From the NCBI GenBank assembly GCA_001662655.1, contig KV460237.1: a stretch of DNA of 64,000 nucleotides; one strand, 5' to 3'. The position numbers and the translations under genes were made by a program. Of this stretch, positions 1 through 49,500 are shown in pieces. This DNA is from Pseudogymnoascus verrucosus (lineage: Eukaryota). The notes under the pieces were generated by a model. That model did not search any database and had not been told where the DNA came from. It saw only the letters and a list, made by a program, of their open reading frames with translations. Every line of letters starts with the position of its first letter. The stretch's first letter is position 1.

Positions 1-462
1 TTGGTCCCAGGAGCGCCTCTTGAATGTCGACTGCCTCGAGGAGGGTCTCCCGCTCCAAGGCCTTAATCCAGCTGCCCTGAATCCAAAGCTGCTTGATCGA
101 GATATCTGGAATCAAACTATCTCCACCTGGAAAGGGCAGGATTGACGTCCACGCATGGCCCGAGAGATTTGGGTATTTCGAGGAGAAGGGTGGCTGGCGG
201 AGATACAGGATCGGCAACGAAAGATATGTGCCAATTGACACCGTAACGGCGATAGTCGCAAGTGCGTGCCGTGCCATGACCATCCCGAGATGGGACATCC
301 ATCTGTGAAGCTGGTGATCATCGTGAAGTATGGGTGGGTTCAAAGTTCTGTTTGCACGATAGTAAGAAATAGAATGCAGTCACCTAGGATGGGGAAGAGT
401 TGGCTTTGACCAATAACATGACACACTTACCCTCGTAGAACATAAAGCAGATACCATATCAT
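1..462 (-). CDS. scp1: SREBP cleavage-activating protein (SCAP/Scp1-like), 5' portion; gene runs off the left edge
   Basis: Manual translation: ATG at 462 gives MIWYLLYVLRG, then a GTAAGT...CAG intron (430-348), then GTLNPPILHDDHQLHRWMSHLGMVMARHALATIAVTVSIGTYLSLPILYL...NLSGHAWT...PDISIKQLWIQGSWIKALERETLLEAVDIQEALLGP, open to base 1. This matches the N-terminus I recall for Pezizomycotina SCAP (MIWYLLYPFRGTTEPP...NLPHHVWT...IWVHGSYMKAL...QDELLGP). The sterol-sensing and WD40 domains would lie outside the window. Not in the ORF track. Confidence 0.8.
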
Positions 463-513
463 CGTAATTAAAGTGCATGTTGTGCGTTGCTGTCTACGGT
501 AGGTTGATGAAAG

Positions 514-547
514 CGTGCTTAACCATCCCTTTCGATGGTTAAGCACG
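514..547. repeat. Perfect 14-bp inverted repeat (hairpin) upstream of the SCAP ATG
   Basis: CGTGCTTAACCATC (514-527), loop CCTTTC, GATGGTTAAGCACG (534-547); overlaps the E-box CACGTG at 544-549. Confidence 0.9.
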
Positions 548-1055
548 TGACTAGATGGTCGGTTTAACAGGTTTTATTAGATATTTCCAGGATACGGGGG
601 GGATCTACACACGGTGTAATTCTCCGGTGGCCTAAAATATCCCTTCTGGCAAAACGGAAGCTAGTATATGGCGTAGTAATACATACAGTGATCAATTGAG
701 TTATTCTATCCATTCAAATGGGCCTACGCAGTGGTTTATAGGCTTTGAAGAGTCTGCTATGACCCCCGAAACCACTGAGTAGTCTACTGTTTCCAGTGCA
801 GAGCCTCTACTAGCCCTAGTGAGTACCACGGGGAGAGCTGGCCCTACGGTGAGGATTACCAGCTTTTCAGGGCCAAAAACCCGGAATCTCCCAGAGCTCG
901 GCCCGGTTTCCCAACGGGTTTGGCATTATCAGTATTATTATTTACGGCAGTTACATCACCGAAGAAGGTACTGTCACTTCGCGCGGACTCTGGACGCGAA
1001 TAGTTCAGCGGCAATAAGCTAGACATGTATGCATGAGACCCGCAGCCCTGGTCAT

Positions 1056-4000
1056 TCAGCAACGTGTGTCCCTCATCCCGACCAACCAACTTAACACATC
1101 AACACATAGCATCGCTATCTCACATTTGACATTCTTTCCCAGTCCACTGTTCCTACCCTGTGTCCCGCTCATCCACAGCTTCAGAGCACCTGCAACGTTC
1201 TCTAATGCTCCCCTAGTCTCATTTTCGAGAGCATTATCCCGAAATGCTGTGTCTAACCAGTTGTATGCAGCCGTGAAACCAAGGAGGCCAAAATCATTGT
1301 CATATATGTGAATGTTTCTGATTAAGGCGATTGCTTCTTTCTTATATTGCGCACGCTTCAGGAGCGCAACAGCCATGGCATATTGCAAAGCTAGGCGAAG
1401 CTCAGGATGAGTCTCTGAATTTATAGAACTGGATAAAATAGCATCAGCCATTGTTGGAACGCAAGTGCCGGATTTCGACAGCGGCGGTAGAACTTGAAGA
1501 GCGGCAGCAATATTAGCACCCCGATGCTCGTTTAGTAGTACTGCGCAAGCAACAACACTGTAGCCTTGAACTAAAGACCCAGTGGGGGAAATCTTTAGGG
1601 CGAGATCAAGATCATGTTGGAAGTCAGCATTGCTGTCCGCAAGGCCAGTTCTCGACCGGAGAAAGTTGACTAGCGCTTTGTGAAGTTTAACACATGAGCA
1701 CCACGCAGAAAGAGCATCTAACGGAGAACCTATAGCAGTGTCATTGATGACAGTGTTCATGCCATCAGTGCAATCGGATACCTTGTTGTCGGTTGGCCTA
1801 TCCCAAGCAAGATTGTGTGCCCGTTGCACCACTCTGTGCTGCATGACGGTGTCAATGTCGAGATCTAGTAAATTAGCCAAATAATCTGGCAGCGCGTCCG
1901 ATCTAGATGTGTCGTTTAATGGCAGTGATAAGCTGATTCGGTTATGGAGCTTCCTCGCTTTCACCCACTGATATCTTGCGAACTTCATAGCAAAGGTCCT
2001 GCACAAGTACCGCCCGCGAAGCTTGCTATTAGAAAGCTCCCATAGAAGGACATGAATGTGGAGGGCTTTGAGCATAAGTCGATAGGGTGTTACGGGAAGC
2101 GTTTCGGAAGCTAGAATCGTTAAGGCTAGTCGACTCAAATTGATCTCAGCGTCGCCGCCAGTAAGCTGCGCATCAATTGCGATTTCCCATGCCCTAATTC
2201 GTGCCACTTCCTGCTCTTCAGTTGCACCAGTCAACATTGCGTATCCATGCCATCCAACGACTTTGCGGATCCCTAGGTTCAGAGACTTCAACAGCAGGGC
2301 TGCGAGTTGTTGCAGAAGGCTATTTTGTGGAACCCAGACCGTCTGAATGGCAGTAAGCCAGGCGCTGCGTCGAACTTCTACCGGTGATCCTAGTGGCAGA
2401 GCAGACTTAGGTGCGAGGTATGGTACAGCCTTTACTTTTTCCTGTAGCTTCGAGTCGAAGAAGGACGGAGAGATAATATAAATGACGGCACCGAACAACA
2501 GGAGGACTTTGAATACGGTGTGGAAGCTTCGGAGTAACAAAGCAAATTCGACAGCATTCGACGGACCCAGTGACCATATGATGTCCCCTAGCTGCCCGAT
2601 GTATTCAGTTGGCAGACTGAAAAGACCGCGAGCTGAAGGCCCGTCGTAGGCCTGCTCATTTTCACCCAAACCTTGCATGACCATGAGACCAGCTAATGAA
2701 CCCACCATGAACTTGCTCATGTATCCGCCACGGCTGGTATTCTGCCTACCGGCAAGGCGCACATCACGACTGGGTGGGGAAGCCTGGTTGGTCGTCGCAG
2801 TATTCGCTTGGTATTGTAGATGTGCTGCATTCCCACGTATTCCTCTCCACTGTAGTGGCTCTTGGTGTCGGCCAGTATCTATTTCTGGTGATTTTGTAGC
2901 CGCCAGCGCTTTAAAGACATCGAGTCGTATTTGCATCGTCGCCATCTGGTCGTTATGTTTCTTGATACGTTCCTCTAGCTCTCGGATATAGTCAGCTGCT
3001 TCTGATAAGACCACCGCTTTATTGATCTTCTGCCCTTTCGATCCATGATCATTGTTGACGTTCTCATATTCATCCTCGTTATGCCCGCTGCCCTGATGAG
3101 TTTTATTATACTTAGCCTTCAGGTTTGGTAACCTATTGCAAAGTGCATCAATCTTATCGTTGAGGTTCGCCCGGTATCTCTTTTCAATGATATTATGGGC
3201 TGCTTTCGCTCTCGGCAAACGCTTGCGACCTGCAGAAGTTGAACCAGCCTCATCATCGCTGACTGAAGGCTTCCGCTTATTGTTTGGTATATTATGACTC
3301 GGTTCAGGCGATGTTGCAGACGGGGCCCAGCCGTCACGGCTCGTGGAAAACAGACTCTGTTCAGTGAGATCACTGCTGTGTGGCGGACTGGTTTGAGAAG
3401 ATCGCGCGAATTGGGGATTCAGGCAAGTGTCCGTAACCGTACGGAGTTGGGATCCCCCTAGAAAGTCCAAGTTCAGATATTCTTCTGTCCATTGCGGGAT
3501 GAAATCTGCAGGTGGCAGCAGGCTCTCACTGGGAGACACATGGGTGCATCCGAGAGGTGACCCACCATCGCTCGAGTTACGATCGATTGGCGTTATTGCT
3601 TCGCCCGTTGCCGTTGCCGAGTGGGGAAAAAACTCGGGGTAAGACGTTCCATCGTCGGTCGCTAGAGGGGTAGGTGATCTTAGCAGATCGTTGTCCCCAC
3701 CCCATTGTGTCCAATCCTCCCAATTGTTCCAATCGAAGAACGACGGAGATGTTGTTGCAGTAGTCGTATCCCTCGGTAACGGATGCCACGCAGTAGCTGG
3801 ATCTCTACCATCTAAATCTGTCGTCAAGTCGACGGACGTGGCCGAAGAGGGAAACCGCTGGCTGTAATCCGATGAAGCAGTATATGTTGAACGTGTTCTC
3901 GACGATGTGGAACAGCGGCTAGTGTTCGAGAAGAACGCGATATTCTACGTCCCGTCAGCGACGACACCAAAGGGTGACGGGAGAAACACCAACCACATCC

Positions 4001-4062
4001 TCTTCCAAGGCAACAGGACCGTGCTCCGTAGCCTCATCACCAAGGCTCTGGGGGGTTTCCAT
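1056..4062 (-). CDS. Sterol regulatory element-binding protein (SREBP; SrbA/Sre1 family) with bHLH, membrane segments and DUF2014-type C-terminus
   Basis: bHLH HNIIEKRYRANLNDKI carries the SREBP-diagnostic Tyr. It is followed by MSKFMVGSLAGLMVMQG, SARGLFSLP, a TM segment FKVLLLFGAVIYII, and RRSAWLTAIQTVWVP / AWEIAIDAQLTGGDAEINLSRL / SPLDALSAW blocks typical of fungal SREBPs. True start inferred at ATG 4062 (METPQSLG) with a phase-0 intron at ~3993-3945 (CTGAC...TAG) joining in frame to the ORF-track frame. Confidence 0.93.
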
Positions 4063-4309
4063 TGTACAGAACCCGTCTCGAGATGCGCGTTGGCCGAGAA
4101 AGATGGGAAAATATGGAGAGAAGCAAAAATGAAGAGAATGGTATTCGAGGGTCTATTCTATTGACTACTTGTCTGGTCGGCCCCGCATGTTGGTTGGTGC
4201 CGAAGGTGGACTGATGGTATCAGGCCAGTCCACGCACTAGACCATCGTCCTGGGTTGGTGGCGAAGGGACCACGCCAGGGACGATGGTGACACCGTCAGT
4301 GCGCTATTT

Positions 4310-4375
4310 GAATTGTCCAATCGCATACGTGTAAAGGAATAAGGCCTGTTCTAGACGCTATATATCACATGATAT
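4310..4375. repeat. 66-bp promoter module, copy 1 (between divergent SREBP and JEN1-like genes)
   Basis: GAATTGTCCAATCGCATACGTGTAAAGGAATAAGGCCTGTTCTAGACGCTATATATCACATGATAT; matches 8333-8397 with 4 substitutions and 1 indel. Confidence 0.92.
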
Positions 4376-7907: not shown

Positions 7908-8332
7908 TTTGTTTGTCTGCTCTATAAGATACTCTAACAGGACATTGAGACAACTATATATATGAGTTGCACACAACTTCATGCTCTGGAATAAGATGTG
8001 GCGTTTGTCGGGTTCCGACCGCATCATGTCACACCCCTACACGGGGGTCAAGGTGATTCATCCAGCAACCAGTAAACTTTGCTAGTTTATCCATCTCTGA
8101 TCGTCATTCTCTATCAGCCCACAGTGGTGTGAGAAACCATAGTGGAATTAGTGTTTATCGCAATGGCCAGGGCTAGCTCTAGTATACCCATATACACAGC
8201 AAAGGTGATTGGTGACACCACTATAAATATTCATGCATTTATTGGCAATGGTTAGTGGCGGGTCAGTTGATCCATCGCATCTAGACCCCTCTAACAAGTT
8301 CGATGTGACATGTCATGGCCCGTGCGCCAAGC

Positions 8333-8397
8333 GAATTATCCAATCGTGTACGTGTAAGGAATAAGGCCTGTTCTAGACGCTATAAATCACATGATAT
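8333..8397. repeat. 66-bp promoter module, copy 2 (between the divergent hypothetical gene and the bZIP gene)
   Basis: GAATTATCCAATCGTGTACGTGTAAGGAATAAGGCCTGTTCTAGACGCTATAAATCACATGATAT; direct repeat of 4310-4375. Confidence 0.92.
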
Positions 8398-8629
8398 TAA
8401 TAGAGATCTAAGTACTCTCTAGACCCACAGAAAATATAAGATGGAATACAGAGCATATGTCCGGAACCTAGGTAGTAGTATTGAACGGAGGCATGTGGTA
8501 ATACGCCTAATTTGCACATATCTTGTTGCTCTTTGCCAGCTTGTAAATATCAATCTAGTAAACCGCCCAAGCCACGAGTTCACTCAAATATCTCAAATCT
8601 ATCACACATCATATGAACTACTAGCAAAG

Positions 8630-9814
8630 ATGGAGGATCCATTGACCATGTTCGACAACAACTTCCACATCTCAGACTCCGAGATGCCTTACTTCTCATA
8701 CCCAGATGCCTGCGTCGACTACCAGGTCACCGACTTCAGAAATCTCTCATGCCTCTTCGACCCACAAATAAGCTACCAAACTGAACCTAATGTCCACCTC
8801 GACAATGCTCTCACCAGAGTTTCCCACAGCAACAGGAGCAGCATCAGCAGCATCAGCAGCAATGAGTCCCCAGAACTTCACGAGGATCTCCCTAACTTCT
8901 TCTCTGAGCACCTGTTATCCTCCCCGGCTACTGGTCAGCCATTTGCAACTCTCGATGCACAGATCCCACACTCGGGATACTCTTCAATGCCATTAGACAG
9001 CCACCTAGCTATCACAGCGCCGAACTCATGGGCCTCGCCACCTCCTACGTCTCCTTCTACGTGCCCCGCTATCTTCACCTCTGGCTTGGAACCATTCAAG
9101 CACCACACGGTGATGAATCATGGACAAGTAACACCGGGCAATTCACCTAAGGACCTTCAGCCCTTACTACGGGAGAGCACGAAAGCTGCGCCGATGACGC
9201 GGCGGCAGTCGAGAAAGGGGAAGGAAGTAGCAGCTGTCACTACTACTACTAATAATGCTACTGCTGCGGTATCGGTCGAGAGCGAGAAAAACACGAAACC
9301 ACTTAAGGATGGTAGGGCGAAAGTCAAGAAGCCGACGAAATCGCAGCAACCGTCGAAGAAGACAACTCTTGAGAATGTTGCTGCTAAACGGGAGGCATTC
9401 CTAAAGAGGAATAAAGAGGCGGCATCTAAGTGCCGGATGAAGATGAAGACGCAGAGGGTGGAGGATGCAGTGAGAATGACGGTCCTCACAGAGGATAATG
9501 CGTCGAAGGGGCTAGAGGTCGAGAAGTTGAGGAGCGAGGTATATGGATTGAAGAAACTGCTGTTGTCGCATTACAGAGAGTGTGGTGAGGAGAGGCTCAT
9601 GGAGTATTGGAATGGGTTTAGAGGCGTAGGAGCAGGGGAGGGGGTGGGAGCTGGGAGGCACGGAGATGGAAATGTAGTGGGCAGTGTAGAGGGAAGCTTT
9701 GAGGATGGTGGGGTGAATATTTATGAGGAGGAGGGGCGAGAGGAGCCGAGGCAGCGCCACAGAGACGACATGGAGGATATTTCCGTTTGCTCATTCGACT
9801 CTGGAGTGCATTAA
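8630..9814 (+). CDS. bZIP transcription factor, ATF/CREB-like (Atf21/AtfB type)
   Basis: Basic region KREAFLKRNKEAASKCRMKMK followed by a zipper ending LRSEVYGLKKLLLSH..C; HGQVTP motif upstream. Start at MEDPLTMF (8630) is inferred; the ORF track opens at 8441. Confidence 0.88.
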   Translation: MEDPLTMFDNNFHISDSEMPYFSYPDACVDYQVTDFRNLSCLFDPQISYQTEPNVHLDNALTRVSHSNRSSISSISSNESPELHEDLPNFFSEHLLSSPATGQPFATLDAQIPHSGYSSMPLDSHLAITAPNSWASPPPTSPSTCPAIFTSGLEPFKHHTVMNHGQVTPGNSPKDLQPLLRESTKAAPMTRRQSRKGKEVAAVTTTTNNATAAVSVESEKNTKPLKDGRAKVKKPTKSQQPSKKTTLENVAAKREAFLKRNKEAASKCRMKMKTQRVEDAVRMTVLTEDNASKGLEVEKLRSEVYGLKKLLLSHYRECGEERLMEYWNGFRGVGAGEGVGAGRHGDGNVVGSVEGSFEDGGVNIYEEEGREEPRQRHRDDMEDISVCSFDSGVH

Positions 9815-12308: not shown

Positions 12309-13321
12309 AGGAGGAGAGAGATGATACTACAAACCTCACAGGGCGAGAATACTCTATACCACAGCCTTGCTGGCGATCTGCAAACCCCCGAGATCGGAAT
12401 AATGGCGGCCTTGGGAAGGCCGCTGTCGATGGAGGGCTCGCGAGAACATTAAGTCAGAGACTTGCAACGACAGTAGGGGATGATGGCAGCTAGATCTTTA
12501 ACAAAAGTCTCAAATTACTCACCGTTGAAGCAGCTCCTTAAGAGCAAATCCTTCAAGTCAAAATTCTCTTTTCTTTCTATGCTTGCGCAGCCTATTAAAG
12601 GGCTCGACGCAGAATGATGAGGTAGTCAGTTGCAGCGTTGCAAGGACAATGCTGTGGTGGCCTGTGCTTTGGCGTATCTGGCGAAGATGAGTGATCGATC
12701 GATCTTTCTAGATGCACATCTCCGTTCCCATGCTGTCGACTGTAGGCCCATAGGCCCAGTATCAGGCCAGTTTCCGCGGATTCGGCGGCTCCAGCTGAGG
12801 ATTTTCCCAGGTATACATACTATATGTATGTCCCGTCAAATAGTTTAGTTAGTTAGTTGGCTCTATATTGTGTTCCTGTGATTCCCATTCTGACTAAGTG
12901 GGAATTCCATGTGCGACAAGGAATGGCAGTTGAATCGCTAGCCATCCCCGCCCCACCCAAACTGTCCAACACGGGTAGGGCCTAGGCGCGCCGGAATATG
13001 CTGATGTGGTACGAGCACTAATTGACGTACCTTTTGCGTCGTTTTCTTTCCGCTGGTTCCGTCATCATACCCCGCCTTGTCCAATGTTCACGCCATGGCT
13101 TCCTTGAGTTTCATTTAGTGTGGCATCTAGATCAGATGCTAAAGTAGAATTAGACTTACTCAATTATTATAACTTCAGAGAATCGCCGCTACACACGACG
13201 ATTCGTAATCTTCTATAATTATCCTCTACGATAACTTATATTATCTGTACAAAAGGGTTTGGATATCTTTCTGAGCCAAGATAGAAAGCCCGTTTCACCC
13301 GAGGCAGGTCGCGTATCTGAT

Positions 13322-14805
13322 ATGTCGGGGAGCACATCGAAAGTCGTCGACCCGTTGAAGGTCATCATCATCGGCGCTGGTATCGGTGGTCTCGCCCTTG
13401 CACAAATGCTCATATCAGCCCCGAAAATTCAGGTTACATTATACGAGCGCAATTTTAGCATCGACGATGGCGTGGTTGGGTTCCGTGTGATGCTGTCGGG
13501 TTCAACTCTGTTAATGCTGAAACGCAAGCTTAGCAGTGAGGTTTGGGCAAGTCTTACCCTCGGCATTGGGGTACAACCAGAGGGAGGCGAGAAGATTGAA
13601 TTCTTAAAGGGAAATGGCGACAAGTTGTTCACCTGGGACTCAGATCCTATAAAGGACCAGTTTTCCGTGTCGCGGTTGCAATTGAGAGAAGCTCTGTTGC
13701 GCCAGACCAAGCCCTTCCTTAAACTAGGCATTGCCTTTGAGAACTATGAGCTGCTGCCAAACGGAGGAGCAAGAGTACATTTTAGTGACGGAACTACTAA
13801 TGAGTGCGACCTCTTAGTAGGTGCTGACGGTTTACACTCAATGGTTAAGAAGCAATTAATCCCCTACGCTACTATTAAGGGCTTGGGCATGGTATGCATC
13901 TATGTCAAAGTTCCCCTCACAGAAAAATCATGGAGGTTATTAGAGTTTACGAGCAGATCAATGGTGATATATCCTATATCCCCTATTTACATAGCCACAA
14001 AGCTAACCTTAACTATACCCTCTGCCCACACAACCAATACATCATGCTCGCCACCTGGCAGAACCCCCTTGCCCACTTCGCAACACGCTACACAAATCTT
14101 ACCATTGAGCCTGAAGAGTCATACATCATGCTTGGCGCTGGGTTCCCAGCCTCAAGTTTTCACAACCGTCGCTGCCCCTTCCCTAGCCTCACCCCCGCCG
14201 AGCTCAAGGCCGAGCTCATCGAACGCACCTCCACACCCGGTATCCACCCGCGTTTCGCTGAACTCGCCCAGGCGGCATGCACAAATACAGCGTACGTCCA
14301 CACAGTGTGTAAGAGCGACGTCATTCACCCGTGGACCTCGCAGACAGTCACGCTCCTTGGCGATGCCGTCTTCAACATGAGCAACACGCTAAGTAGGGGT
14401 GCGAATTGCGCGCTCCTCGACGCCATCTCCCTCGCTGAGTGCCTCACCTCGCCCACGTACGACCGACACTCACCAACTAGCATTAGCGCCTATGTGAACG
14501 AAAACATTGAGCGCCGCTCAAACGAGCGTCTCCGCTCGTTCTTAATGCAGAAGGTTGTGTTCCCTGGCCAGAACAGCCTTAAGGGGTTTGTACGTAACAT
14601 GACGCTGCCCCTCGCACTTCACCGGATCGACGACCTGGGCCATGAGAAGCATGGGCCTGGCCAGCACTGGGTTGGTGATGACGGCTCGCAGAAGGAGGAG
14701 TATGCTTCACCGAAGTGGGTGGAAGAACTGCAGTGGGAGGAGCTCTTTGCTAAAAAGCAAGCTGAGGGAAAGGAAGGAGCTAGACTGCAGAGAGAGTATG
14801 ACTAA
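13322..14805 (+). CDS. FAD-dependent monooxygenase (UbiH/salicylate hydroxylase-like); possible splice defect
   Basis: GAGIGG Rossmann motif, DLLVGADG, VTLLGDA..GANCALLDA. The two reading frames are joined by an inferred intron at 13964-14016 that ends in TAT rather than YAG. Confidence 0.82.
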
Positions 14806-46564: not shown

Positions 46565-49500
46565 TTAACTCCCGCTATGCTCTTCGACTAAGCAGGAATA
46601 GTGCCTTCTACATGCTAATGTAGTTGGATGGTCCCGCCCAAGGGCAATTTCATAGCCGTTGCATGCCCTCTGGTACAGTTCCGCCGCAGGCTCATAACGT
46701 TGCAGGGAAGCTAGAAGGAAAGCCAAGTTGTAGACGCTAGTGAGCGTGTCTGGATGGTTGACCCCAAGCTCCCTCTCTCTCCCTTCTAGCGCTCGTCGGT
46801 TCATCAACTCTGCCTCCTCATATCTTCCCTGGCTGTCTAGCACTAACGCAAGGTTGCTAACGCTAGTGAGCGTGTCTGGATGGTTGACCCTAAGCTCCCT
46901 CTCATACCCTTCTAGCGCTCGTCGGTTCATCAACTCTGCCTCCTCATATCTTCCCTGGCTGTCTAGCAGTAACGCAAGGTTGCTGACGCTAGTGAGCGTG
47001 TCTGGATGGTTGACCCCAAGCTCCCTCTCCCTCCCTTCTAGCGCTCGTCGGTTCATCAACTCTGCCTCCTCATATCTTCCCTGGCTCTGTAGCACTGACG
47101 CAAGATTGCTGACGCTAGTGAGCGTGTCTGGATGGTTGACCCTAAGCTCCCTCTCATACCCTTCTAGCGCTCGTCGGTTCATCAACTCTGCCTCCTCATA
47201 TCTTCCCTGGCTGTCTAGTACTAACGCAAGGTTGTTGACGCTAGTGAGCGTGTGTGGATGGTTGACCCCAAGCTCCCTCTCTCTCCCTTCTAGCGCTCGT
47301 CGGTTCATCAACTCCGCCTCCTCATATCTTCCCTGCCTGTCTAGCACTAACGCAAGATTGCTGACGCTAGTAAGTGTGTCTGGATGGTTGACCCCAAGCT
47401 CCCTCTCCCTCCCTTCTAGCGCTCGTCGGTTCATCAACTCTGCCTCCTTATATTTTCCCTGGCTCCGTAGCACTAACGCAAGATTGCTAACGCTAGTAAG
47501 TGTGTCTAGATGGTTGACCCCAAGCTCCCTCTCCCTCCCTTCTAGCGCTCGTTGGATCATCGACTCTGCCTCCTCATATCTTCCCTGCCTCCGTAGCAGT
47601 ATCGCAAGGTCGCTAACGCTAGTGAGCGTGTCTAGATGGTTGACCCCAAGCTCCCTCTCCCTTACCACTATTGCCTCTTGAAGTATAGGCTCAGCGCGGA
47701 TGGCCTCGCCTTTTTGTATATAATACCATCCTAACCTGGTATTTATCGCTGCAACACGTAGCAGATCTTGCTGATCAGTCGCTTTGGACGACATGACCGT
47801 TCTCACGTGAGGAAGCAGAATCTGGCAGTGAGACCACGTCTTATAATCTCCATTTGGGAACAGTCTTTCTGTAATCTTAATCGCCTCGCTCCGCCATTTC
47901 TGTAGCTGTCCGTTCAACTCTACCCACTTCCTGGTCGACAGCTGCACCAGCCGGTGCATCTCGAATGCGCCGCCTTCTGAATGCTCTCGGATCAGCGAGA
48001 AGTTGACCAGCGGCGCAACACTATCCTCAAACAGCAACTGGTCTGTGTTATTATGTAGCAGCCGCTCGGGAATACTCTGTCTATCGAACATGCACATGAG
48101 CGAAAGCAGGTCTGCAGCTTCGGCATTCGTCCGTTGGATCTGATCGAACGAAATCTGCCACGTCGTAATCACCGCGTGCCTGATACTGTGATCGCGCCGG
48201 AGGTCTTTCGTCTCATCGTTATTCAGTAGACTAGTCTGGTTAGCCTCGCTTTCCCGGAACAGACTGAGGTATATAGATATGGTAACCCGCGGCCTTGACC
48301 GTATGTATGCTGCAGCGTGCGTAATCGCCAGTGGAATACCTTCAAGTGCCTGGGCTAGCTCCTTTAAGTCTGCCTTAGAAATTTTGTCTGCTGGTATCTT
48401 CGTCTTGAGCAACTCAACCGAGTCCTTCTCTTCCATTGGCTCTACCGGTATAAATTTACCAAACGTGTCGACGAGGTTGTTGGCCGCGGTCGAGTTACGT
48501 GATGTGATAAGGATTGATCCGTTTCGCGACTGAGGAAGAAACGTCTCTAGTGGTGGCTGCAAGTTGGTTGCTTGGTCGTGCGGTGAGACGCCCCTAACGA
48601 CATCATTATTCTCAAAAAACACACTTCCGTCGTCGACATTGTCTAGGACCATATGCCACTGTCCGTTGGCTTCATCTGACAGCCAATTGTATACTAGGCG
48701 TAGCACGTTGGCCTTTGGATCGTCTCGCCCCGGAAGCTCAAGCCTCTCTGCAATCTCTTGATACGCTTGTTCGAACCGGGTCTTGGTACTTGCATGGATC
48801 CAAAACACTGATATTTGCGGTCGGTGCTTCCGCGCTCGGTATGCATACTCGATAGCGATTTGGGATTTCCTACACGCATTTAGCCGCCGTGAAGATGGGT
48901 ATGGTAGCAGACCTACCCAACTCCCCCAAGACCGACTAGTGCTTGTCTCCTGTGCTTTTTTGGCGCCTCCTGCTGGCCTCCTAAGTCTAGTTGATCTAGA
49001 ATGTCTTCTCGACCAACGAAGTGCTCGTCTTGGGAGAAGGGAACTATAAATGGTTTGCTAGGTGCTGGATGAACTGAGTGATCAGCAGCATAATACATTA
49101 CTAGCATATAGTTACGTACAGGATATATCATTGTTATCAGCTAAGTTCGTTTCCCTGCTCGACAGTCCAGTCCTTATGAATTGCTTTAGAACTCCACAGA
49201 TCTGGCGGTAAGACGCATCGTCTCTGCTGCTACACCTAGCCATTTCCATATGATTCGCGTCGATGGTCTCTACAGTTTCTTGTTCCCTAGCGAGATCGAG
49301 CTTCGAGGAAAAGTTGTCGACTACCTGTGATATCTATTAGTTTCTGCAGCTCCATAGGTTACAGTCTAGTATTTTACTTTGCTGTCTAGACCTCTCATGC
49401 CGGAAATCCCCTTCGCTTCTTGGAACGAGTGAACTTTGATGGCGTATTTAGTAAGTATAGTCTTGAACTCCTCGTGAATATTGTCCAAAACCTCGTCGTT

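Follow-up and report, generated by a model that had tools for sequence, protein, structure and literature searches.

The 64,000-nucleotide stretch of Pseudogymnoascus verrucosus DNA analyzed here (the window; contig KV460237.1, G000:C32:186001-250000 in our numbering of the genome) carries an SREBP gene and a SCAP gene in tandem on the same strand. To our knowledge, fungal SCAP has been regarded as a single-copy, unlinked gene, or as lost. In this genome, a second copy of each gene lies on another contig; we designate the window genes B and the other genome copies A. The explanation we prefer, to which we give an even chance, is that the B genes form an old, co-inherited, dedicated second SREBP-SCAP unit that is less sterol gated and whose output is set by transcription. 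The dedication of the pair is the firmer part of this explanation and is probable, because the two genes have remained together, unlike their canonical counterparts, and because an SREBP is degraded without its SCAP. In Schizosaccharomyces pombe, Sre1 is degraded when it does not bind Scp1 (PMC5099872).

SREBP-B is carried by a single 962-codon frame on the minus strand (window 3944-1056) with an EKRYR basic region. With a 69-nt first exon and a 49-nt intron added, the complete protein has 985 amino acids and is 100% identical to P0002, a hypothetical protein of P. verrucosus. It matches the Pfam families HLH (PF00010, E=1.6e-10) and DUF2014 (PF09427, E=1.4e-144), the basic-region tyrosine is present in 22/22 clade-B SREBP rows, and a profile of the clade matches the structure of the Sre1 C-terminal domain (5GRS, E=2.6e-5). 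Two membrane segments would be expected between the bHLH and the C-terminal domain; hydropathy peaks at residues 488 to 521 (threshold, 1.5), and the conserved first segment, MVGSLAGLMV, lies below that threshold in SREBP-B and in the canonical copy alike. By these sequence features, SREBP-B is a fungal SREBP of the Sre1/SrbA/SAH-2 type, with a tyrosine-containing basic helix-loop-helix (bHLH) and a C-terminal DUF2014 domain.

The preliminary description of this DNA had placed the end of an SREBP gene 594 bp from the start codon of a SCAP-like gene on the same strand, which is borne out by a stop at 1056 and an ATG at 462, with 593 bases between them. Extended to the left of the window, the SCAP-B gene has five exons that encode an uninterrupted 1109-amino-acid protein (Table 1). 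Its introns are all GT-AG (83, 48, 50, and 54 nt), and the first is identical in position and phase to that of canonical SCAP. The protein has a PF12349 sterol-sensing domain whose best PDB matches are SCAP chains. A profile made from clade B only matches vertebrate SCAP chains (E 2e-13) and the WD40 structure of S. pombe Scp1 (4YHC, E=4.2e-6), and a mixed SCAP profile matches 4YHC over the whole WD40 domain (E=3.8e-45). Seven hydrophobic segments above threshold precede the WD40 domain, and an acidic C-terminal tail is present. Judged on these matches, SCAP-B is a SCAP homologue with a sterol-sensing membrane region and a WD40 propeller homologous to that of Scp1. The earlier description had proposed just this search for sterol-sensing and WD40 domains after leftward extension and would have abandoned its idea for a left gene lacking them or for a pseudogene; both domains are there, in an uninterrupted frame that is spliced in RNA contigs.

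That splicing was seen in RNA-type contigs of close relatives, from four runs in four studies (4 of 24 listed runs). Three of the four runs were only guessed to be RNA, and the contigs give no expression level; we took all four as RNA because spliced joints cannot come from genomic DNA. Introns 1, 2, and 3 of SCAP-B are skipped at the predicted places in 2/4, 2/4, and 4/4 runs, respectively, and the SREBP-B intron is skipped in 2/4, with a shifted joint in a third run; SCAP-B intron 4 was not bridged by contigs of the four runs. Because introns are skipped at the predicted places in contigs of four studies, both B genes are transcribed and spliced in close relatives. A split PF12349 match with a stop had raised the possibility of a pseudogene or of a frameshift in the sensing domain. 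This was rejected, as the interruption consists of introns 2 and 3, which are spliced in RNA contigs.

The genome holds two SCAP genes, on C32 (B) and C31 (A), that are 29% identical over 1088 columns, and two DUF2014 SREBP genes, on C32 (B) and C13 (A), that are 31% identical. No partner gene was found within the 30 kb fetched around each of the canonical genes on C31 and C13. A third gene with the bHLH tyrosine (C81:53758-53862; the tyrosine occurs in 3 among 9 listed of 10 HLH matches) has no DUF2014 match and is probably of the short SRE-2 type. There is one Insig gene and one Dsc4-type gene. The canonical SREBP-A gene (C13:400630-403465) has a very long branch (1.0-1.3), a biased composition with a Pro/Leu/Ala-rich C-terminal domain, and three sterol regulatory element (SRE)/E-box sites 1.1-1.3 kb upstream; its drift may date from a time when the genome already had the second pair.

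We built SCAP trees of 44 and 25 rows by a quick method and of 26 N-terminal rows by a careful method, and SREBP trees of 48 and 24 rows; all are unrooted, without an outgroup, and have long branches. The homologue searches scored at most 8000 candidates each, and the SREBP set comprises the best 120 of 727 matches, so that absence from particular genomes means little. SCAP-B falls in a clade with a long stem and full support (Shimodaira-Hasegawa-like approximate likelihood ratio test [SH-aLRT], 100%; 100/100 in the careful N-terminal tree) that includes four Helotiales (Mollisiaceae sp., Cudoniella, Tricladium, and Halenospora) and many metagenome fragments. The SREBP-B clade, also with 100% support, contains Pseudogymnoascus and metagenome proteins down to 43% identity. 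The window genes thus stand outside the canonical Leotiomycete/Sordariomycete orthogroup, where the C31 and C13 genes take their place: SCAP-A groups with Leotiomycete and Sordariomycete genes, and SREBP-A groups with canonical genes on a long branch. Recent duplication was rejected for both proteins by the approximately unbiased (AU) test, with a p-AU of 7.8e-70 when Pseudogymnoascus SCAP-A and SCAP-B were held together and of 2.8e-5 when the SREBP-B clade was held with the C13 gene. With no outgroup and with long branches, the trees are compatible both with ancient duplication followed by many losses and with horizontal transfer. Within the Helotiales, a SCAP-B subgroup (P0123, P0124, P0140, P0142, and P0218-P0220) had no SREBP-B partner among the matches listed in length-limited searches; its members could be orphan escorts or have unannotated partners.

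The tandem order holds across Pseudogymnoascus. It appears in four gene models that fuse the two proteins, P0007, P0128, and P0131 from three Pseudogymnoascus and P0122; the junctions of the four models differ, and they are therefore annotation errors that record adjacency. Linkage probably extends far beyond Pseudogymnoascus, as four distant pairs of SREBP-B and SCAP-B entries (43-51% identity) share exact contig sizes (20,872; 15,013; 37,280; and 190,652). These are 4 size matches among 34 x 36 B entries, for which jittered sizes gave a chance mean of 0.054; there were 0 matches when canonical entries were crossed with each other (A x A, 100 x 81) or with B entries in either direction (B x A and A x B). 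The A x A control carries little weight, few genomes being common to both sets. Over seven linked pairs, the pairwise identities of SREBP-B and SCAP-B track each other (Spearman 0.89; 21 non-independent comparisons). In a metagenome scan that kept 80 of 305 relatives and gave 77 canonical SREBP loci and 3 of clade B, SCAP was beside canonical SREBP at 0/77 loci in the fetched flank, with at least 2 kb downstream available for 43 of them (26 distinct). In the full-text literature, with subscription papers outside its scope, we found no description of duplicated or linked SCAP-SREBP genes. The preliminary description had supposed a second, diverged SCAP-SREBP pair that was inherited together, and A copies elsewhere in the genome, separate B clades, and adjacency that recurs in relatives all uphold it. 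It would have given way had the window genes been the sole canonical copies, with no adjacency in close relatives; canonical SCAP and SREBP genes on two other contigs rule that out.

Residues involved in sterol response and export differ between the two SCAP types. In a gapless alignment to SCAP chain 7etw_B, SCAP-B places N437 on D443 and YGIQD on MELAD, its loop reading NYGIQDS. Canonical rows keep Y298 (73/73), L315 (72/72), D428 (70/70), D/E443 (71/71), and E448 (70/71). Among B rows, an acidic residue at the D443 position is found in 0/7 (N in 3, S in 2, A in 2), and positions 446 to 448 of loop 6 are altered in 7/7, with Tyr at 447 and Gly at 448; D428 and D451 are kept, and 449 remains hydrophobic. 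Y298 is lost in 5/5 Pseudogymnoascus-type B rows and is Leu in the window protein. SCAP-B therefore lacks the full sterol-response set: L315, D428, and D451 are kept, and Y298, D443, and the MELADL-like loop are changed. These changes make a canonical, sterol-gated SCAP less likely and leave its standing as a SCAP homologue unaffected. Y298C and D443N are sterol-resistant mammalian SCAP alleles that do not bind Insig, MELADL is a COPII signal, and D451A/L452A SCAP cannot leave the endoplasmic reticulum (ER) (PMC7654440). As far as sequence can tell, these changes suggest loosened sterol gating rather than a named new ligand.

The predicted contact surface of the pair also differs from the canonical one. 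Interface residues were known from the S. pombe work (PMC4387560, PMC5099872), with Scp1 numbering assigned by residue spacing. The Scp1 R617 position is Arg in 61/66 canonical rows and His in 8/9 B rows, and the next residue is Glu in 9/9 B rows versus 0/66. On the SREBP side, the Sre1 R862 position in helix alpha8 is Arg in 101/101 canonical rows versus Lys in 23/23 B rows, and the E855 position is invariant. Charge complementarity was not found at the interface, where SCAP-B gains an acidic residue and the tail of SREBP-B carries less positive charge than the canonical one (mean net charge, 0.9 versus 3.2). The interface changes are compatible with partner specificity. Within the same strain, WD40 conservation is 87% for B versus 75% for A, and that of the sensing domain is 86% versus 93% (the A model is partial).

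An SRE-like motif lies no more than 400 nt from the start in 3/3 SREBP-B promoters, against a background of 0.092 per kb; one of the three is identical to the reported high-affinity srbA site. SrbA-type motifs were taken from PMC4223079 and PMC3305660. In the window, the motif is the palindrome ATCATGTGAT.

By analogy with S. pombe and Neurospora, the SCAP-B WD40 domain would bind and stabilize the C-terminal domain of SREBP-B, the complex would travel to the Golgi, where the Dsc ligase and a rhomboid would release the bHLH, and the freed bHLH would bind SRE/E-box sites. The lost acidic residue at the D443 position and the rewritten MELADL-like loop would make export less dependent on sterol. 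Output would then be mostly transcriptional, via the SRE-like site in the SREBP-B promoter, as a second-tier or amplifying arm of a hypoxia or membrane response. Linkage would persist because the SREBP is unstable without its SCAP, both genes being useful only if gained or lost together. The targets of SREBP-B need not be ergosterol genes, to go by other filamentous fungi, among which sterol control has been rewired (PMC12627898). A bolder version, which we find possible though doubtful, is that a lineage of Leotiomycete fungi has retained a two-gene cassette since before the Helotiales-Pseudogymnoascus split, that the SCAP of this cassette is an escort naturally insensitive to sterol and set apart from the canonical pair by a binding surface that co-evolved, and that the cassette possibly moved between lineages as a unit.

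Several observations weigh against the dedicated, less sterol-gated unit that we prefer. Y298 is kept in 24/31 B rows (two fragments being unclassified by the score rule), and L315 and D428 persist. Clade B has lost 38/144 columns conserved in canonical SCAP, and the 6/12 lost at the end of transmembrane segment (TM) 6 and in loop 6 give a Fisher p of only 0.06; the 7 B rows, moreover, are related (about two lineages) and thus stand for few independent events. The fission yeast Insig does not regulate Sre1-Scp1 (PMC3564778), whereas mammalian D443N acts via lost Insig binding, and an altered MELADL might just as well prevent export. In SREBP-B, changes at the interface are not enriched (2/9 versus 27/230, p=0.30). 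The ratio of nonsynonymous to synonymous variation (pN/pS) relative to a related genome, L033, is 0.94 over the N-terminal 416 codons of SREBP-B (bHLH, 0.42; neighboring genes, 0.26 and 0.69) and about 0.5 for SCAP-B (32 variants listed); selection on the B pair is purifying but relaxed. Linkage in distant fungi is read from equal contig sizes and not from DNA, the three clade-B metagenome loci end 0-624 nt past the gene and so are uninformative on SCAP adjacency, and length-limited searches gave no SREBP-B, among the matches listed, for the four Helotiales with SCAP-B. For SCAP, the tree test weakly rejects B as sister to the Leotiomycete/Sordariomycete copies (p=0.016), whereas the equivalent for SREBP is the best unrooted tree; with these basal placements in disagreement, a common history of the two genes at the deepest nodes is not established. 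Lastly, the ATCATGTGAT site lies within a 42- to 65-nt segment duplicated from the promoter region of a nearby bZIP gene (8337-8397).

Some of these points would suit a pair that is dedicated and yet fully regulated, with SCAP-B sensing another sterol or intermediate, or having a shifted threshold (for example, for membrane state in cold or low oxygen), so that the cell has two parallel sensors. We think this unlikely, though likelier than the other alternatives. No part of SCAP-B is better conserved than the TM2-5 core of its sensing domain (2/23 canonical-conserved columns lost versus 36/121 elsewhere), D428, L315, and D451 persist, the loop that replaces the canonical one (YG[IL]xDSF) is in turn constant in 7/7 B rows, and distinct sterol intermediates trigger distinct factors in Neurospora (PMC12627898). 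It sits poorly with the loss, in every B copy, of an acidic D443 position found in all canonical fungal copies and with a sensing domain that drifts faster in B than in A. Alternatively, the relaxed selection, with pN/pS near 1 in the N-terminal half of SREBP-B, the lower-GC accessory surroundings with local rearrangement, and the patchy distribution among genomes could mark an accessory pair that is mostly redundant and also binds the canonical proteins, its linkage being no more than a relic of a single old event, duplication or horizontal transfer, that involved both genes. This is improbable in view of frames that stay intact across relatives at 79-89% identity, structured domains that are more conserved than the N-terminal region (87-91% versus 72-80%), splicing of both genes in several studies, and linkage that apparently survives to 43-51% identity. 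In addition, the canonical genes are unlinked, and a single segmental duplication therefore does not explain the tandem order.

The same COPII-motif changes at positions 446 to 448, together with the retention of mammalian MELADL mutants in the ER (PMC7654440), might instead mean that SCAP-B is export dead or inhibitory, holding SREBP-B in the ER, or sequestering SREBP-A there, and so damping the pathway. D451 and a hydrophobic residue at 449 nevertheless persist, and SCAP-B has the acidic C-terminal tail that was proposed as an alternative export signal in Scp1 (PMC4387560); we regard this possibility as very improbable. A single fused SREBP-SCAP gene, as P0007, P0122, P0128, and P0131 would have it, is barely credible: the four junctions cut the SREBP C-terminal tail as well as differing from one another, SCAP-B starts with a separate ATG exon, which is homologous to the one in canonical SCAP and is seen spliced in RNA contigs, and no RNA joint crosses the spacer in the four runs. 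Part of the 593-nt spacer also has no RNA-contig cover in 4/4 runs, a weak hint.

Compared with S. pombe Sre1-Scp1 (4YHC and 5GRS; PMC4387560, PMC5099872), the B pair shares a Tyr-bHLH precursor with DUF2014, a SCAP with a sensing domain and WD40, the alpha8 Glu, and the presence of a Dsc-type processing gene. It differs in being a second pair beside a canonical one, in having adjacent genes, and in the changed R617 and R862 positions. Neurospora crassa (SAH-2/SCP-1) and Clonostachys rosea (SRE1/SCAP) each have one SCAP-binding DUF2014 SREBP plus a short SRE-2 (PMC5395666, PMC12627898, bioRxiv 10.1101/2024.02.26.582079), and C. rosea SRE1 binds SCAP in a two-hybrid assay (bioRxiv 10.1101/2024.02.26.582079). 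Their SREBP and SCAP are orthologous to the C13 and C31 copies, and their short SRE-2 is probably orthologous to the C81 gene. Unlike P. verrucosus, they are reported with one SCAP per genome and with locus tags far apart (NCU04731 versus NCU03675; CRV2T00000933 versus CRV2T00000306), and their second SREBP is described as having no DUF2014 and no SCAP binding. SREBP-B, by contrast, is full length and is accompanied by a SCAP gene of its own. A survey of Hypocreales-type genomes found SCAP copy number conserved (bioRxiv 10.1101/2024.02.26.582079), and Eurotiomycetes are reported to be without SCAP (PMC3894159). Aspergillus fumigatus SrbA/SrbB (PMC4223079) offers a parallel, in that an additional factor of the SREBP type, whose promoter itself carries SRE sites, works there as a second tier; SrbB is, however, reported without membrane segments, whereas SREBP-B is probably of the membrane type and has a linked SCAP. 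The window SCAP-B naturally has the Asn of mammalian D443N and, where Y298C is altered, a Leu (PMC7654440), although the mammalian alleles are laboratory mutants acting via Insig and the SCAP-B changes occur in a protein that has diverged elsewhere too and whose loop 6 is rewritten.

The presence of a second SCAP, accompanied by an SREBP gene, shows that a genome can carry this pathway twice and maintain the additional copy as a unit. Two natural pairs in one genome make SREBP-SCAP partner specificity directly testable and likewise the question of how a SCAP in fungi, where Insig contributes little, detects sterol and leaves the ER, with SCAP-B as a natural experiment at D443, Y298, and MELADL. 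The tandem B pair also explains the recurring annotation error of fused SREBP-SCAP models. Should the sterol-insensitive, insulated cassette prove true, it would mark the first case of an SREBP pathway that is both parallel and portable, in which a sterol feedback sensor has become a transcriptionally switched module.

Table 1. Features of the SREBP-B/SCAP-B locus (window positions unless contig coordinates are given)
Feature	Position	Strand	Remark
SCAP-B exons	186462-186431, 186347-185432, 185383-185268, 185217-183638, 183583-182898 (G000:C32)	-	
SCAP-B exon 2, start	1..347	-	gene runs 3.1 kb past the left window edge, to G000:C32:182898
SCAP-B intron 1, 83 nt	348..430	-	spliced in 2/4 runs
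SCAP-B exon 1, 32 nt, start codon at 462	431..462	-	
Spacer, 593 nt: SREBP-B 3' region plus promoter of SCAP-B, with a single CACGTG E-box core (544-549)	463..1055	.	sequence
SREBP-B exon 2 to stop: low-complexity N-terminal region, Tyr-bHLH, putative membrane segments, DUF2014	1056..3944	-	
SREBP-B DUF2014, putative SCAP-binding C-terminal domain	1068..2393	-	PF09427 match C32:187068-188393
SREBP-B bHLH, SREBP-type tyrosine (HNIIEKRYR)	2973..3206	-	PF00010 match C32:188973-189206
SREBP-B intron, 49 nt, GT-AG	3945..3993	-	RNA-contig joint
SREBP-B exon 1, 23 codons, start codon at 4062	3994..4062	-	P0002 N-terminus; RNA joint 3944/3994 in 2/4 runs
SRE-like palindrome ATCATGTGAT, 311 nt upstream of SREBP-B	4364..4373	.	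motif definition from PMC4223079

The pair was first described as sitting among accessory genes, which is partly right. It lies in a stretch of 0.42-0.51 GC content (about C32:170-218 kb), with one patch of 0.54-0.60 at 10-13 kb of the window, that holds transporters, a chitinase, transcription factors, and F-box genes; GC-richer core genes stand on both sides. The suggested link to Starship elements fell away, as 0/19 DUF3435 matches are on C32 and the neighbors are common to a relative; with no DUF3435 captain on C32, Starship cargo was rejected. The 19 DUF3435 (Starship captain) matches are on 12 other contigs of the genome, 16 of them with internal stops.

Relative L033 has the same DUF7336 and bZIP neighbors, and the MFS gene is absent there. 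A short direct repeat that includes the SRE-like palindrome (window 4288-4375 and 8311-8397, with a spacing of 4,022 nt; 98% over 42 nt, with a 47-nt portion at 74% before it) flanks the MFS transporter gene and the DUF7336 gene. As L033 has only the bZIP-side copy and no MFS gene, an insertion brought the copied promoter piece to SREBP-B. An apparent enrichment of ATCAYRTGAT in the window (2 found versus 0.29 expected) is void because both matches are in one duplicated segment and the pattern was chosen after it was seen. The bZIP gene (window 8423-9814, plus strand; pN/pS, 0.69) has two SRE-like motifs upstream, is divergent from the DUF7336 gene, and is kept beside SREBP-B in L033; it could be a target of the pair or a third component of the unit.

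ERG1 (squalene epoxidase; PF08491, E=2e-91) is encoded on the minus strand at C32:163733-165418 (L005:3733-5418), in the core-gene flank 17.5 kb left of SCAP-B. No SRE match was found in about 1 kb upstream of it, and a sterol gene cluster is therefore unsupported; its proximity is probably a coincidence. At window 13235-14805 (plus strand), an FAD-dependent monooxygenase-like gene is split over two overlapping frames. Two minus-strand genes, at window 46565-49057 and C32:156754-160969, we presume from their translations to be NLR-like; one has near-identical TPR-type repeats and the other has ankyrin-type repeats.

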